Positions 12,098-32,283 of a stretch of DNA of 61,573 bases are shown here, piece by piece. Both the position numbers and the translations under genes were made by a program. The DNA comes from a virus (Duplodnaviria > Heunggongvirae > Uroviricota > Caudoviricetes). How positions within the stretch are numbered: position 1 is the stretch's first letter; each line of letters starts with the position of its first letter. The stretch spans positions 1 to 61,573 of IMG/VR virus record IMGVR_UViG_2778261122_000001, one strand, 5' to 3'. The notes under the pieces are model-generated. The model did no database searches and had not been told where the DNA came from. It saw only the letters and a list, made by a program, of their open reading frames with translations.

Positions 12098-12117
<20 letters not shown>
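10798..12117 (-). CDS. C: Capsid assembly protease C with in-frame nested scaffold Nu3
   Basis: GTG start after GAGGAGGAG; translation TAELRNLPHIASMAFNEP matches lambda gpC. Confidence 0.85.
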
Positions 12118-15798
<3,681 letters not shown>

Positions 15799-15824
<26 letters not shown>

Positions 15825-16344
15825 TCAGCAACCCCGGTATCAGTTCATCCAGCGCGGCTGCTTTGTTCATGGCTTTGATGATATCCCGTTTCAGGAAATC
15901 AACATGTCGGTTTTCCAGTTCCGGAAAACGCCGCTGCACCGACAGGGGGATCCCGTCGAGAATACTGGCAATTTCACCTGCGATCCGCGACAGCACGAAA
16001 GTACAGAATGCGGTTTCCACCACTTCAGCGGAGTCTCTGGCATTTTTCAGCTCCTGTGCGTCGGCCTGCGCACGCGTAAGTCGATGGCGTTCGTACTCAA
16101 TAGTCCCTGGCTGGAGATCTGTCTCGCTGGCCTGTCGCAGTTCTTCAACCTCCCGGCGCAGCTTTTCGTTCTCAATTTCAGCATCCCTTTCGGCATACCA
16201 TTTTATGACGTCGGCAGAGTCATAAAGCACCTCATTACCCTTCCCACCGCCTCGCAGAACGGGCATTCCCTGCTCCTGCCAGTTCTGAATAGTACGGATA
16301 CTCGCGCCGAAAATGTCAGCCAGCTGCTTTTTGTTGACTTCCAT
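15799..16344 (-). CDS. Nu1: Terminase small subunit Nu1
   Basis: 181 aa; MEVNKKQLADIFGASIRTIQNWQEQG HTH matches lambda Nu1. Confidence 0.9.
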
Positions 16345-27245: not shown

Positions 27246-27481
27246 AGGTCTGGTTTCACAAACTGGTTCCGCTCCTGCGATATCTCAGCCTGGCGCGGGA
27301 AATGTCTGCGTGTATCCTCTTCACAACGGTGAGCCACACGCCCACTCTGACGTAACTTGCTTGCTGACTGCAGAACTCGCTGCCGTGAGTAACCTGCAAA
27401 AGCATCCGCAATGTCTCCGGAAGTACACCCCGGATGGGCTTCAATGAATTTCTGAACGTCATTCAAAAGGCTCATGATCAC
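27206..27481 (-). CDS. Hypothetical protein
   Basis: 91-aa ORF in operon context. Confidence 0.35.
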   Translation of the reverse strand: MIMSLLNDVQKFIEAHPGCTSGDIADAFAGYSRQRVLQSASKLRQSGRVAHRCEEDTRRHFPRQAEISQERNQFVKPDLCAISMSALTTPG

Positions 27482-28419
27482 CCCCTGAATCCTGCCGGGA
27501 TCTGGCTGTAGTCCACATTGTCGTAACTGGCTTTGAAGTACGGGTCTTCGCGTTTTTCTGTGTACGTGCTGACGGACGGCGATAAGCGCAGGGAAAGTTC
27601 ATCCCATTTTTCCCGCAGCTTCGACGGGCTGAACACGTTACGGCACCAGAACGGGTCGCGGCTGACGCGGCTGTACATCTCGCAGATTTGTTTGTGGGTA
27701 CGACCGTCCTGTACACACATCAGGCGAATTTCATTTGCCCAGGCTGTCCAGTTCGGTTCTTTGGGACGAACCACCTCGCCGTCACATTCGGCGGCCTGCT
27801 CGTACAGGGCGATGATTTTTTTCCAGAGCCACTGTGCGCAGGTCAAATCATCCTGCGTTCCCCACTGGCGCTTTTTAGGGCTGAATACAACCGCATCAGG
27901 ATGGCGAGTTAAAAAATCCTGTTCAGCCTTCTGCATGTCCGGTTGCGAAGCGTCCGGACGAGAAGGTTTTTTATCTGACGGATCATGTTTTGATTTTACT
28001 GACGGATCCCCGCCAGATTCTGACGGGTGAAAACCCGCTTTTTTGCCAGATTTCGACGCATCAAATTTTGACGGGTCAGATTTTGATGCGTCAGATTTTG
28101 ACGGGTCAGAATCTGACAGTTGAGAAAATGCCGCTGCCTGAAGCTTCGCAACGTTAAGCTGATAAACATTCGACGCATTGCGGTTACCCTGGCGACGCGC
28201 CTTACGCGTTAACCAGCCTTCTGCTTCCAGCCGTGCGATAGCCGTTCTGACGGTGCTCATCCCCGCGCCAATCTGGCGGGCAATGGTTTCAATTGATGGC
28301 CAGCACACACCTTCGTCATTACTGAAATCAGCCAGGCGGGCCATAATTGCCACGCTGGATAACTTCATGCCTGACGCAGCGCAACCATCCCATACATAGC
28401 CGGTTAATTTAGTGCTCAT
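27478..28419 (-). CDS. Replication initiator protein (origin iterons inside the gene)
   Basis: 313 aa; N-terminal HTH-like region, linker SDPSKSDASKSDPSKFDASKSG encoded by the DNA iterons; lambda-O-like architecture. Confidence 0.65.
   Translation of the reverse strand: MSTKLTGYVWDGCAASGMKLSSVAIMARLADFSNDEGVCWPSIETIARQIGAGMSTVRTAIARLEAEGWLTRKARRQGNRNASNVYQLNVAKLQAAAFSQLSDSDPSKSDASKSDPSKFDASKSGKKAGFHPSESGGDPSVKSKHDPSDKKPSRPDASQPDMQKAEQDFLTRHPDAVVFSPKKRQWGTQDDLTCAQWLWKKIIALYEQAAECDGEVVRPKEPNWTAWANEIRLMCVQDGRTHKQICEMYSRVSRDPFWCRNVFSPSKLREKWDELSLRLSPSVSTYTEKREDPYFKASYDNVDYSQIPAGFRG
27970..28130. repeat. Origin iterons: about eight direct repeats of a ~15-16-bp unit (ATTTTGACGGGTCAG-like)
   Basis: Visible tandem units gattttgacgggtcag, attttgatgcgtcag, attttgacgggtcag, aatctgacag inside the replication gene. 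Confidence 0.7.
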
Positions 28420-28767: not shown

Positions 28768-29315
28768 GCGTTAGTTTCTCCACAGTCACGACACGCCACG
28801 GCGCCCGGAGCTGCACACTCGCGGGCGTCATTACTTTCTGAAATGCAAAAAATTTTGTAGACCAGTGCTGCATGCTCCTGCAGCTTCGAAATTGAGAGGT
28901 ACAGCTCGTCATTAATTGCTGTCTTCTCATGCGGTTCCACTACACCGTCTTCGATTGCTGAACGAATCTGTTTTGAATAACTGCCGATCTGTTCAATGAC
29001 TTCCAGCAGACGCTGGTTAATATCGGCGTTGTCCACATCCTCGACGTCAGGAAGAGACACAAAGACGCCATTTGCAGACTGCGCCACAGCATCAGCAATG
29101 AAGTGAGTTCCACCAGCACGTTGCAAAATCATTGCCCATCCCAGCGGGAAAATCTGATCGCCATCGGCACGAAGGCGGTTAAATAATGCGTTCTCTGTTA
29201 CATCCAGCCAGTCAGCAGCTTCAGCGTAACCCCCCGGCAACGCTGCGATAGTTTTTCTGACAGCTTTCACGTACCACTCAGGCTGTTTGTCTACTTTCCA
29301 GTGATGCTTACCCAC
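28764..29315 (-). CDS. Hypothetical early regulatory protein at the cII position
   Basis: 183-aa ORF directly downstream of cro; positional inference only. Confidence 0.4.
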
Positions 29316-29568
29316 GGTTCACCTCCTGTTCCTGTGGTTTAAACCCATTCTGGTTTTGGCTAGATTGAAAACGTGCCGGATAAAGAATCTGCATTTCGCT
29401 GATTTCACCCTTAAAAAAATTGGCTAAACGTTCTGCAAGCTCGATAGATGGAATCTGTTCCAGCCTCTCAATACGACTCAACGTCGCTGGATTGACTTGA
29501 ACACCCGCAGCAACATGCTGCAAAGTGAAACCATGCGCCTTACGCACATTTCGTAATGGTGATTGCAT
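29308..29568 (-). CDS. cro: Cro-like HTH repressor
   Basis: 86 aa, HTH pattern, divergent from cI. Confidence 0.65.
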   Translation of the reverse strand: MQSPLRNVRKAHGFTLQHVAAGVQVNPATLSRIERLEQIPSIELAERLANFFKGEISEMQILYPARFQSSQNQNGFKPQEQEVNRG

Positions 29569-29665
29569 ATAACCTCCAAATATTGCGCGTTATGCATGTT
29601 ATTTCACGCAAGTATTTTGCGCAAGTTGATTTGCTTATCACGCAATAAAGAAATGTAATAAACGC
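29569..29665. promoter_or_regulatory. Divergent immunity promoter/operator region (PR/PRM-like)
   Basis: 97-bp gap between divergent cro and cI with repeated TTGCGC / CACGCAA half-site motifs. Confidence 0.6.
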
Positions 29666-30358
29666 ATGAACATAGGAAACCGAGTCAGACAACTTCGCCA
29701 AGCGAAGAACATGAAAATCGCCGATCTCGCTGAAGCAATAGGAGTAGATGCGGCGAACATCTCGCGCTTAGAAACGGGTAAGCAGAAACAATTTACCGAA
29801 CAAACACTGAGTAATATTGCCAAGAGCTTAGGTGTTGATATTGCTGATCTCTTTACCTCTGCCCTCAAAAGCAATACTGTATATAAAAACAGTAATGATG
29901 AGGATGTTGCGCAGGTGAAGGATGTGTTCCGTATTGAAATGCTGGATATCAGTGCCAGTGCGGGAAATGGCCTTATCCAGGGCGGTGATGTCATTGATGT
30001 GATTCATGCCATCGAATACAGAACTGATAATGCTGTATCAATGTTCGGCGGACGACCAGCCAATCACATCAAAGTTATCAACGTTCGTGGGGACAGTATG
30101 TGTCCAACCATTGAGCCAGGAGATCTCATCTTCGTTGATGTCAGCATCAATCAGTTTGATGGTGATGGTATATATGTCTTTGGTTTTGATGACAAAATAT
30201 ACGTTAAAAGACTTCAAATGATTCCTGACAAACTGCTGGTGATTTCTGATAACCAGATTTACCGTGAATGGGGAATTACTAGCGAAAACGAACACCGATT
30301 CATGGTCTTTGGAAAGGTCTTAATCAGTCAGTCGCAAACCCTTAAGAGACATAATTAA
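29666..30358 (+). CDS. cI: CI-type prophage repressor (HTH plus S24 LexA-like autopeptidase)
   Basis: N-terminal HTH; C-terminal GDSM Ser and VKRL Lys of the S24 dyad. Confidence 0.85.
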   Translation: MNIGNRVRQLRQAKNMKIADLAEAIGVDAANISRLETGKQKQFTEQTLSNIAKSLGVDIADLFTSALKSNTVYKNSNDEDVAQVKDVFRIEMLDISASAGNGLIQGGDVIDVIHAIEYRTDNAVSMFGGRPANHIKVINVRGDSMCPTIEPGDLIFVDVSINQFDGDGIYVFGFDDKIYVKRLQMIPDKLLVISDNQIYREWGITSENEHRFMVFGKVLISQSQTLKRHN

Positions 30359-30377
30359 CTTCAATATCCCATCCATC

Positions 30378-30399
30378 GGCCACCGAAAGGTGGCTTTTT
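30378..30399 (+). terminator. Intrinsic terminator downstream of cI
   Basis: GGCCACC-gaaa-GGTGGC hairpin followed by TTTTT. Confidence 0.6.
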
Positions 30400-30685
30400 A
30401 TCACCCATCATTTTGCACATCTCGCAAAATATTACTTGCGCATTTCGCATTTTAATTTTATCTTTTGTTCCAGACCAACTACAGGATTACAACAAAATCT
30501 GGTTGCAACACGGTGCATGGTGCATGTGTCGTAAGCGGTCAGTAAATGTCAAAAACGAACAGTCAGGACGACCAAGAAGTAGCCGCCTTGGGCATATGAA
30601 GTCCAAGATGATTCGTTAGCAACAAAAAAGCGCCCTATAGGACGCTTCGCTCTTTAACAATCTGGATATCCACAACAGTAGCAAT

Positions 30686-31167
30686 CTACAGATTGCCGTT
30701 AAGTTTTCTGGCCAACTCCTCAATGGATGGAGGCGATACGTAATCCGGATTTTTATTCATCAGAAACTTATTTTCACAGTGGAGGCACCTGCTTTTATGA
30801 AAAAGCTCATCTTCGCTAACCGGGAATGGTTGAAGTATCGATACTATCTTTTGTCCAAAACATTTTGGGCAAAGATGCATGGTTATGCTGCCACCGTTCA
30901 CGATTACCTCCTTCGAGTATACAAAAGTACCCGACTCAAGTTGGTTAAGGATATAGCCTTCCGTCTGAGCCTCAAAGTTTTCGAATTCTGCAATTTTAGC
31001 TTTGAGAGAAGCATTTATTTCTTGATAAGAGCCCACCAGTTCAACGAGAGACACGCATTCGCGCTGAATAGACGCAAGCTTTGAGTTCAGCTCACCAATA
31101 GCCGCATTTACTTCAGCTTGAGTTTTTGCCTCGTTCATTAGTTTTGCAATCTGGGCTGTTTCACGAA
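30686..31167 (-). CDS. Hypothetical coiled-coil protein with C-terminal CPKC...CLHC zinc-ribbon-like motif
   Basis: Start trimmed to MTAIRETAQ; upstream in-frame extension crosses hairpin-rich GC-rich DNA and is probably non-coding. Confidence 0.45.
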
Positions 31168-31214
31168 TAGCCGTCATTGCTGCCGTTAATTCAGCGATCA
31201 CATTGAATACTCTT

Positions 31215-31268
31215 ATTGTTGTTGGGGATATCCAGATTAACCGAATCCTTGTTGTTGGGGAATAACCA
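31215..31268. repeat. Two direct repeats of TTGTTGTTGGGGA(T/A)ATA(T/A)CCAG, 33 bp apart
   Basis: 31215..31234 and 31248..31268 share 18 of 20 positions; lie 50-100 bp upstream of the 30686..31167 gene. Confidence 0.5.
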
Positions 31269-31486
31269 GGTCCACCTCGCCTGATGTGGCTAAAAGCAGG
31301 CACATAACAGCTAAGTATTTTCAACCAGAGAGAATCCTTAGCGTTGTGGTGAATGCGGCTCAGCGCACGCGGGTTAAGGTTGAGGCTGACAGTCGACCTT
31401 CTGTGGATACCCACCCGCCTGGTGTGCAACCTTCGCCAGGCACCGGGAGGCACCCGGCACCACAACTTTATGCTGTGTGTAGTCCT

Positions 31487-31621
31487 GGCGGTACCAGTTT
31501 GTACCCTTGCTTCCGGCTGGTACCGTCCTTTTTACAAAACAGAGAAGAGCCTCACCGGACGACGGGCTCATAACCCAATCCATCCGGGCGGCTGCCACCG
31601 CAGGTGTTCTTCTCTGTTTTG
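31487..31621 (+). other. Hairpin-dense GC-rich noncoding element (candidate structured RNA)
   Basis: GGCGGTACCAG/CTGGTACCG stem followed by TTTTT (31487..31533), then a perfect 14-bp inverted repeat CAAAACAGAGAAGA/TCTTCTCTGTTTTG around a 59-nt loop (31535..31621); strand unknown. Confidence 0.35.
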
Positions 31622-31746
31622 TGGAGAAACTAACCGCCCCTACGGGGGCATTTATGGAAATGTAATTGACTCAATAATCGCCGGACGGTGAGGGCTTCCT
31701 TTTACCCGAATTCAGCGCGGTGCAGCGCATATACGTGGAGAACAAA

Positions 31747-32283
31747 ATGTCATTTATTAAAACTTTTTCCGGGAAGCATTTTTATTATGACAGGATAAAT
31801 AAAGACGACATCGTTATTAACGATATCGCGGTTTCCCTTTCAAATATCTGTCGCTTTGCAGGACATCTTTCACACTTCTACAGTGTCGCCCAACATGCGG
31901 TGCTTTGCAGCCAGCTGGTGCCGCAGGAATTTGCTTTTGAAGCTTTAATGCATGATGCAACAGAAGCATATTGCCAGGACATCCCCGCACCACTGAAACG
32001 ACTTCTTCCTGACTATAAACGGATGGAAGAAAAAATAGACGCCGTAATCCGTGAGAAATACGGGTTACCTCCTGTTATGAGCACGCCAGTGAAATATGCC
32101 GATCTCATTATGCTGGCAACCGAACGCCGCGATCTCGGGCTTGATGATGGCTCTTTCTGGCCTGTGCTGGAAGGTATCCCGGCAACAGAGATGTTCAACG
32201 TGATTCCACTGGCTCCAGGCCATGCCTACGGGATGTTTATGGAACGCTTTAACGAATTATCGGAGTTACGCAAATGCGCATGA
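31747..32283 (+). CDS. HD-domain phosphohydrolase
   Basis: Start trimmed to MSFIKTF after GGAGAA; H...HD metal-binding pattern (FAGHLSHFYSVAQHAV...LMHDATEAY). Confidence 0.75.
   Translation: MSFIKTFSGKHFYYDRINKDDIVINDIAVSLSNICRFAGHLSHFYSVAQHAVLCSQLVPQEFAFEALMHDATEAYCQDIPAPLKRLLPDYKRMEEKIDAVIREKYGLPPVMSTPVKYADLIMLATERRDLGLDDGSFWPVLEGIPATEMFNVIPLAPGHAYGMFMERFNELSELRKCA

Follow-up and report, generated by a model that had tools for sequence, protein, structure and literature searches.

The locus raises the question of what is encoded by a small gene that converges on the repressor gene cI of a lambdoid prophage. The window, i.e. the whole stretch of 61,573 nucleotides that was analysed, carries an SfII/SfIV/SfV-like lambdoid prophage. 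A sequence-only reading had described an ORF of ~160 aa at positions 30686-31167, just past the cI terminator and pointing toward cI, and had guessed from this position that it was a lysogen-expressed exclusion gene. The minus-strand ORF does converge on the plus-strand cI gene, and the cI terminator is found between the two (Table 1). The ORF itself is real and the size given was about right, but the 5' end at 31167 is out of frame with any start codon. An N-terminus with the sequence MIAELxAAM is common to 25 homologues and begins at the GTG at position 31201; because of this conservation, translation was taken to start at this codon, which gives a 171-aa protein ending at the stop codon at 30686. 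A Shine-Dalgarno sequence (AAGAG) is present 8 nt 5' of the GTG, and PGAP annotated an identical 171-aa CDS in a genome that is 99.6% identical. An internal ATG at 31177 would give an alternative product of 163 aa. A 259-aa ORF from a TTG at 31465 was rejected as an over-extension of the same CDS.

Table 1. Features of the region surrounding cI and the rip1-like gene, with their positions in the window.
Feature	Position	Strand	Description
Cro-like gene	29308-29568		diverges from cI
cI	29666-30358	+	HTH and Peptidase_S24 domains
cI terminator	30378-30395		
Intrinsic terminator of the rip1-like gene (predicted)	30627-30648	-	GC-rich 9-bp stem, then a U run
Partial promoter-core copy in inverted orientation, AATCTGGATATCCACAACA	30659-30677	+	palindromic centre GGATATCC; 9 nt past the stop codon
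rip1-like CDS	30686-31201	-	171 aa, GTG start; predicted helices at residues 2-79, then C-terminal beta domain with CPKC and CLHC
sieB-type promoter and short leader (by homology to P22)	31202-31264	-	-35 TATTCC at 31264-31259; -10 GTTAAT at 31241-31236
Direct repeats CCCCAACAAC	31251-31260 and 31218-31227	-	one copy covers part of the -35/spacer; the other is at the predicted mRNA 5' end
Conserved element GCCTG-CTTTTAGCCACAT-CAGGC-GAG-GTGG	31272-31301	-	5' of the promoter; invariant blocks in alignment A3

Structure prediction and a remote homology search had been proposed as checks on the exclusion guess, and both point to Rip1, a characterised prophage defence protein. When the family profile (A1, built from 26 homologues) was compared with the PDB sequences, a single significant match was obtained, 9oox_L, 'ring interacting pore 1 (Rip1)' (E=2.4e-17), spanning positions 6-152 of the 171 in the profile and residues 16-160 of the chain. 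The title of entry 9oox describes HK446 Rip1 in complex with the small terminase of phage T6. In pairwise comparisons, BLASTP gave 27% identity over 148 aa with HK446 Rip1, the 9oox chain (E=2e-11), and tblastn gave 29% identity with genes of the Pseudomonas Mu-like phages JBD30, DMS3 and D3112 (E=2e-11). AlphaFold2, supplied with an alignment of 26 sequences, predicted two helices (residues 2-24 and 28-79) and, C-terminal to them, a domain of six strands (pLDDT 88); the long helix expected from the sequence is thus found in the model. A single-sequence model (pLDDT 63) was discarded and the alignment-based one used instead. The only significant PDB matches returned by Foldseek were 9oox_L and 9oox_M (E ~6e-7, probability 1.00, TM 0.52-0.71).

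The CPKC...CLHC motif noticed earlier is present at residues 111-114 and 139-142, respectively, and its four cysteines (C111, C114, C139 and C142) are invariant throughout the family. In an alignment of 26 sequences made up of the window protein, HK446 gp37, JBD30 gp30 and 23 diverse relatives, Y95 is also invariant, L66, Y83 and S121 are nearly so, and residues are kept across genera, down to 50% identity. HK446 gp37 and JBD30 gp30 are homologous to the window protein over approximately the full length, have the same size and the same two-part fold, and share with it the four cysteines, the conserved tyrosine and an SILQ motif. The segment that had been read as a coiled coil corresponds to the N-terminal helix of Rip1 that a review (PMC13434031) terms amphipathic. 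The mean hydrophobic moment of this helix is 0.275 compared to 0.205 +/- 0.041 for shuffled sequences, 27 of the 500 shuffles being as high, which represents a modest excess; the N-terminal helix of HK446 Rip1 has a moment at the same level. A transmembrane segment is absent, the maximum Kyte-Doolittle mean over 19 residues being 0.85. Combined, these sequence and fold comparisons support the assignment of the gene to a divergent branch of the Rip1 family.

The family is large. At E<=1e-3, the profile matched 2,375 representatives of 50%-identity clusters in a library of 1.84 billion proteins, and the ORF is therefore not a chance one. Among the 150 matches listed, most proteins are about 145-180 aa long with a single matched stretch, and a single architecture is seen. 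An initial homologue search returned Enterobacterales proteins only, all named 'hypothetical protein'. HkaP of phage HK620 and its homologues in HK629 and HK630, which are also lambdoid phages, belong to the same family (tblastn 28% identity, E=3e-13), are more distant from the window protein and are apparently uncharacterised. In PHROGs the protein matched family 1244, for which the function is given as unknown, and searches of Pfam, NCBIfam and PADLOC-2023 returned chance-level matches only, to coiled-coil families; with the PADLOC models, nothing was found beyond a chance-level match at E=0.059.

Rip1 was reported by Patel et al. (Nature 651:1060, 2026). As summarised in the review (PMC13434031), a meeting report and a citing paper, Rip1 is a single prophage-encoded defence protein that is not toxic alone. 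[quoted passage not shown] In these summaries, an 11-mer ring of small terminase is encircled by 12 copies of Rip1, whose amphipathic N-terminal helices assemble into a pore; the complex provokes dye release from liposomes and holes in cells, and the outcome is premature lysis late in infection. The JBD30 gene (gp30) is flanked by genes for a 166-aa DUF1804/HTH protein and for a 550-aa protein; this fits what the review says of the original Rip1, located between the two terminase genes, and the two neighbours would then be putative terminases.

As the identity to the characterised Rip1 proteins is only 27-29%, the window protein may respond to another trigger and may even have another output. 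The fold might have been put to another use, for instance sensing a different oligomeric phage protein with an output other than a pore, or modulating the timing of lysis or packaging of the prophage itself instead of defence against other phages. This seems unlikely. Besides the low identity, a region C-terminal to the second CxxC that is unlike that of the HK446 and JBD30 proteins speaks for it, as does the distinct subfamily, which is confined to Enterobacterales, has its own C-terminal tail (PDYVSPPSIEELARKLNGNL) and comes with its own flanking inverted repeat. However, the architecture and the invariant residues are conserved over the full length, the genomic placement resembles that of bona fide Rip1 and of sieB, and a separate unit antisense to the lytic genes is unlike the arrangement of lytic-cycle functions. 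A defence role of the Rip1 type remains our preferred reading of the gene.

The position of the gene had been equated with that of rexAB in lambda. This part of the reading did not hold: the slot is the sieB one, the gene being antisense, beyond an operator-like region and within the putative PL operon, and not a rex slot co-transcribed with cI. In alignment A3, which takes in lambda, P22, HK446 and other loci, the region upstream of the window gene aligned with the regions upstream of sieB in P22 and lambda. In P22 (NC_002371) this region carries an annotated sieB promoter and RNA start site, and by homology the RNA of the window gene would start near 31229. A scan of positions 29200-32000 for consensus sigma-70 promoters found none and the mapped promoter is weak by consensus, so that its assignment derives from the homology to P22; in several variants of the module the -10 hexamer is a perfect TATAAT at the same place. 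The predicted leader is 28 nt long, CA-rich and unstructured. The repeats that had been noticed upstream of the ORF proved to be the two CCCCAACAAC copies of Table 1. A type III toxin-antitoxin-like array of tandem repeats was considered and rejected, as there are only two copies and they are part of the sieB-type promoter/leader. The idea that the conserved element represents terminator tL1 of lambda, or the end of a sas-like RNA, was also dropped; no usable literature was found and the plus-strand fold is unremarkable (z -1.8). Rfam holds no family for the upstream module.

The upstream block of ~105 nt is conserved before members of the subfamily in Salmonella, Citrobacter and Cronobacter prophages. 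It is also found before HK446 rip1, before the unrelated genes SfIV_36 and SfII_36, and before sieB of lambda, P22 and a Hafnia phage. The position of HK446 rip1 is exactly that of sieB in lambda: the gene adjoins the end of N, is read against PL transcription, and lies behind the same promoter module as the window gene; the window variant of the module has CCCCAACAAC repeats whereas that of HK446 rip1 has CCCCTACAG. SfII, SfIV and SfV carry other small genes in the same slot, and the window gene is part of a cassette that can be exchanged while its flanks are conserved (the flanks span roughly 30551-30617/30665 on one side and 31218/31272-31647 on the other). In all eight loci examined, which cover five enterobacterial arrangements and JBD30, the gene is antisense to the flanking lytic genes. 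It is placed on the PL side in the window, Citrobacter, Cronobacter and HK446, and on the PR side, directly after cro, in one Salmonella prophage. It has no co-oriented neighbour in the window, and the same holds for the HK446, JBD30, Salmonella, Citrobacter and Cronobacter loci; like the characterised Rip1 genes, it is a lone prophage gene.

On the 3' side, the predicted terminator folds with -13.7 kcal/mol on the minus strand (z -2.9) and with only -7.2 kcal/mol on the plus strand. Because it combines a sieB-type promoter with a strong terminator on its own strand, the gene appears as a self-contained promoter-gene-terminator unit. Between the terminator and the stop codon lies the inverted copy of the promoter core: positions 30659-30677 (AATCTGGATATCC...) and 31220-31238 form a 19-nt inverted repeat that is 95% complementary. 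An equivalent inverted copy is present 3' of the gene in Salmonella, Citrobacter and Cronobacter contexts (L008 4522-4540, L010 4533-4551 and L013 4504-4522), and it distinguishes the window gene from the characterised Rip1 genes. The breakpoints of homology with SfIV fall within the inverted promoter-core repeats. The inverted copy may mark a recombination boundary, bind a protein or be what is left of an antisense promoter. Two other interpretations were discarded. A mobile or invertible segment bounded by the repeat is not supported as no recombinase is encoded close by and what is conserved is a promoter-core copy; pairing between the 5' and 3' ends of the mRNA is not supported as the complementarity is not kept in the Cronobacter and Salmonella versions and the greater share of the conserved part lies 5' of the predicted RNA start.

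The 330 bp that separate cI from the rip1-like gene contain the cI terminator, an operator-like region and the terminator of the rip1-like gene. The 9-mer ACTTGCGCA has exact copies only at 29618-29626 (minus strand) and 30434-30442 (plus strand) in the 61.5 kb; the two copies flank cI inside CGCAA...TTGCG inverted repeats, the first in the cI-cro intergenic region. These sites are likely the OR and OL operators, and PL would then be located just past the cI terminator, pointing rightward. It is from these operator-like repeats only that we infer the position of PL and antisense read-through of the gene. Just downstream of the putative PL, a short and very basic frame (...RKRSVNVKNEQSGRPRSSRLGHMKSKMIR) is found at 30500-30619 on the plus strand; it has no family matches, and its 3' part (block 30551-30617) is conserved in PhiR29, SfIV and SfV, phages with different immunity regions. 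This frame could be an N-like or leader element.

The proximity to cI and cro, together with a CxxC...CxxC motif and a long helix, would also suit a regulator of the zinc-ribbon/coiled-coil kind. Like DksA/TraR or the N-domain of MqsA, such a protein would bind nucleic acid or RNA polymerase and tune transcription of the immunity region. A weak local likeness of CLHCENKFLMNK to the zinc-finger region of MqsA counts in its favour. We nevertheless regard such a regulator as highly improbable: there was no Pfam or NCBIfam match to zf-dskA_traR, MqsA or any DNA-binding domain, the significant Foldseek matches were to Rip1 only, and the homologues in Pseudomonas phages are located between structural genes, far from any immunity region.

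The comparison with the two classical exclusion systems of lambdoid phages specifies what is shared and what is not. The sieB gene of lambda and P22 (product PF14163) also lies in this slot, against the direction of the early-left operon and close to the repressor gene, and is preceded by a homologous promoter/leader module; slot and regulation are shared but not the protein family. SieB has hydrophobic helices and resides in the membrane, whereas the window protein has no transmembrane segment and no match to PF14163 (no match at E<=1 and no hydrophobic segment), and there is no relationship between the two in sequence or fold. For sieB, expression from the prophage and an action of the abortive-infection type are established, as reported by Ranade and Poteete in 1993; the window gene would be of the same type. 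RexAB of lambda, like the window gene, adjoins cI, and provides abortive infection that is expressed in the lysogen and ends in membrane depolarisation. It consists of a gene pair that shares the PRM transcript with cI and is located between cI and OL; in contrast, the window gene is single, is read toward cI from past the operator-like region and is unrelated to rex in sequence. The co-transcription of two genes that characterises RexAB was not found in the window, where a lone gene lies on the strand opposite cI with the cI terminator in between.

The surroundings of the gene showed additional features. On the plus strand, a structured small RNA-like element at 31313-31535 matches Rfam STnc100 (RF02076) with 43.1 bits, under the gathering score of 47 (E=5.8e-07). 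It has a terminator-like 3' hairpin, points away from the rip1-like gene and is also kept in SfV, SfII, SfIV and ST64B; a 2026 preprint links STnc100 to the PasD prophage sRNAs. At 31636-31647, ~1.3 kb with yfdP and yfdQ are absent from the window and SfII relative to PhiR29, SfIV and SfV, and the junction is a 12-nt overlap of two homology blocks. The early-left operon runs directly into a gene for a YfdR-like HD-domain 5'-deoxynucleotidase (ORF 31720-32283). On the other side of cI, four 15-bp tandem repeats (CAGATTTTGACGGGT) at 28047-28110, within an O-like replication gene (27478-28419), are probably origin iterons; an Rfam 'mir-5880' assignment at the same positions was rejected as a chance match to the tandem repeat.

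The distribution of the gene was analysed in 5,426 complete E. coli genomes. The 516-bp gene was found at >=90% nucleotide identity in 650 of them (~12%), always on the chromosome. Copies in O157:H7 strains are ~95% identical, and O26 and O103 strains also carry the gene. All 12 matches listed were annotated 'hypothetical protein'. These data bear on a further possibility, namely that the ORF is silent or decaying and has no function in the lysogen. The promoter, weak by consensus, and the 'hypothetical' annotation of the matches examined would agree with a dead gene. On the other hand, the gene is kept over >=80% of its length, at the same identity threshold, in 645 genomes, residues are conserved across genera to 50% identity, and the promoter module and the terminator are conserved as well, and we consider a functionless ORF to be extremely improbable.

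Since the protein is homologous to Rip1 and the upstream region to the sieB promoter, a defence function is supported, and the guess of an exclusion gene was in this respect well founded. We consider it likely that the gene encodes a single-protein abortive-infection defence of the Rip1 family and that, as a self-contained unit, it fills the sieB slot of a lambdoid prophage of the SfII/SfV type. By sequence relationship, the mode of action is likely abortive infection by pore formation and not exclusion at entry. In the lysogen, as judged from P22, the gene would be transcribed toward cI from the sieB-type promoter, from a start near 31229 to the terminator. The 171-aa product would be soluble and, as published for Rip1, harmless alone. 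Late in infection an incoming phage would make ring-shaped packaging proteins, small terminase or portal; the four-cysteine beta domain, by analogy with the 9oox complex and the review, would bind around such a ring and template a Rip1 ring of ~12 subunits. The inner membrane would then be breached by a pore of the N-terminal helices, and the cell would be permeabilised before progeny mature. Upon induction of the prophage, PL transcription might run antisense through the gene, which is speculative. The resident packaging genes encode a small terminase of the lambda Nu1 type (15799-16344) and a lambda-type portal (12098-13699); neither the resident small terminase nor the portal showed a sequence relation to the partner chain of 9oox. 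Again speculatively, the Nu1-type protein of the prophage might fail to act as a trigger.

The promoter module was also searched for in other phages. IMG/VR was scanned for the 30-nt pattern GCCTG(N)CTTTTNNCCACNTCAGGCNNNGTGG, and at least 120 viral contigs were recovered (loci L018-L137). A downstream ORF was found in 105 of the contigs matched, and the products fall into at least 34 unrelated clusters of small proteins. Among the matches listed, the cargoes include Rip1-like proteins (12), SfIV_36-like proteins (12), a 106-aa membrane protein (12) and a 76-aa zinc-ribbon protein (11); true SieB proteins that match PF14163 make up two clusters, C5 and C23, with 10 members in total. Many cargoes among these matches are singletons, ~30 of the families behind the module are uncharacterised, and PADLOC-2023 gave only weak matches, for the 76-aa zinc-ribbon protein and for the 136-aa C24 protein. 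One cargo (L072, 136 aa, ORF 71 nt past the element) has a Rip1-like layout, with an N-terminal helix/coiled coil followed by CPNC...CSFC. The Rip1 profile did not detect this protein, which may be a more distant Rip1 relative or an analogue.

Two spacing classes were observed, with the start codon either 36-41 nt (short) or 66-75 nt (long) past the element. In the short class (e.g. L018, L022, L037 and L045) the element reads TT(C/A)ACC-N16-TGgTATCCT, which amounts to an extended -10 promoter, and is followed by a stem-loop that holds the Shine-Dalgarno sequence in its 3' arm. Variants of this stem show compensatory differences (CCTTAAAA/TTTTAAGG, CTTGG/CCAAG and GCTGG/CCAGC). The stems of the element are fixed by the pattern used for the scan, which therefore provides no covariation evidence for the element itself. 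The long class comprises lambda, P22, HK446 and the window, and has a P22-type promoter between two direct repeats. These repeats are identical or nearly identical within a module and differ between modules (CCCCTACAG, CCCCAACAAC, TCCACAGTCAA, CCCCAATGCAA and CCCCCACAA); five variants of the pair were found, with examples beyond the window at L015 638-681 and L017 3694-3737. This pattern suggests that the matched copies may be under selection to stay alike.

A broader scheme can be drawn from these observations, which we regard as possible but doubtful. Together, the module and the inverted copy might act as a portable cassette for expression and self-immunity and define a hypervariable defence slot in lambdoid phages. 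The direct repeats and the GGATATCC palindromes might be regulatory, perhaps bringing about a silencing of the P22 sas/esc type at the lytic switch of the prophage itself. The ~30 cargo families might be new antiphage genes, and the Rip1 subfamily of the window might sense a ring protein other than a small terminase of the T6 type. The sieB-slot promoter module may serve to mark a hypervariable site for cargo genes, and with the 30-nt element as a simple sequence handle, further candidates for defence genes can be collected from lambdoid prophages.

That the gene is preceded by a sieB-type promoter module explains why a guess based on position had turned out well. A gene that is present in ~12% of complete E. 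coli genomes had been missed by the 2023 defence-system models and by Pfam, and its assignment to the Rip1 family provides it with a testable function and mechanism. As a divergent subfamily, these proteins could reveal how the specificity for the trigger varies within the Rip1 family.
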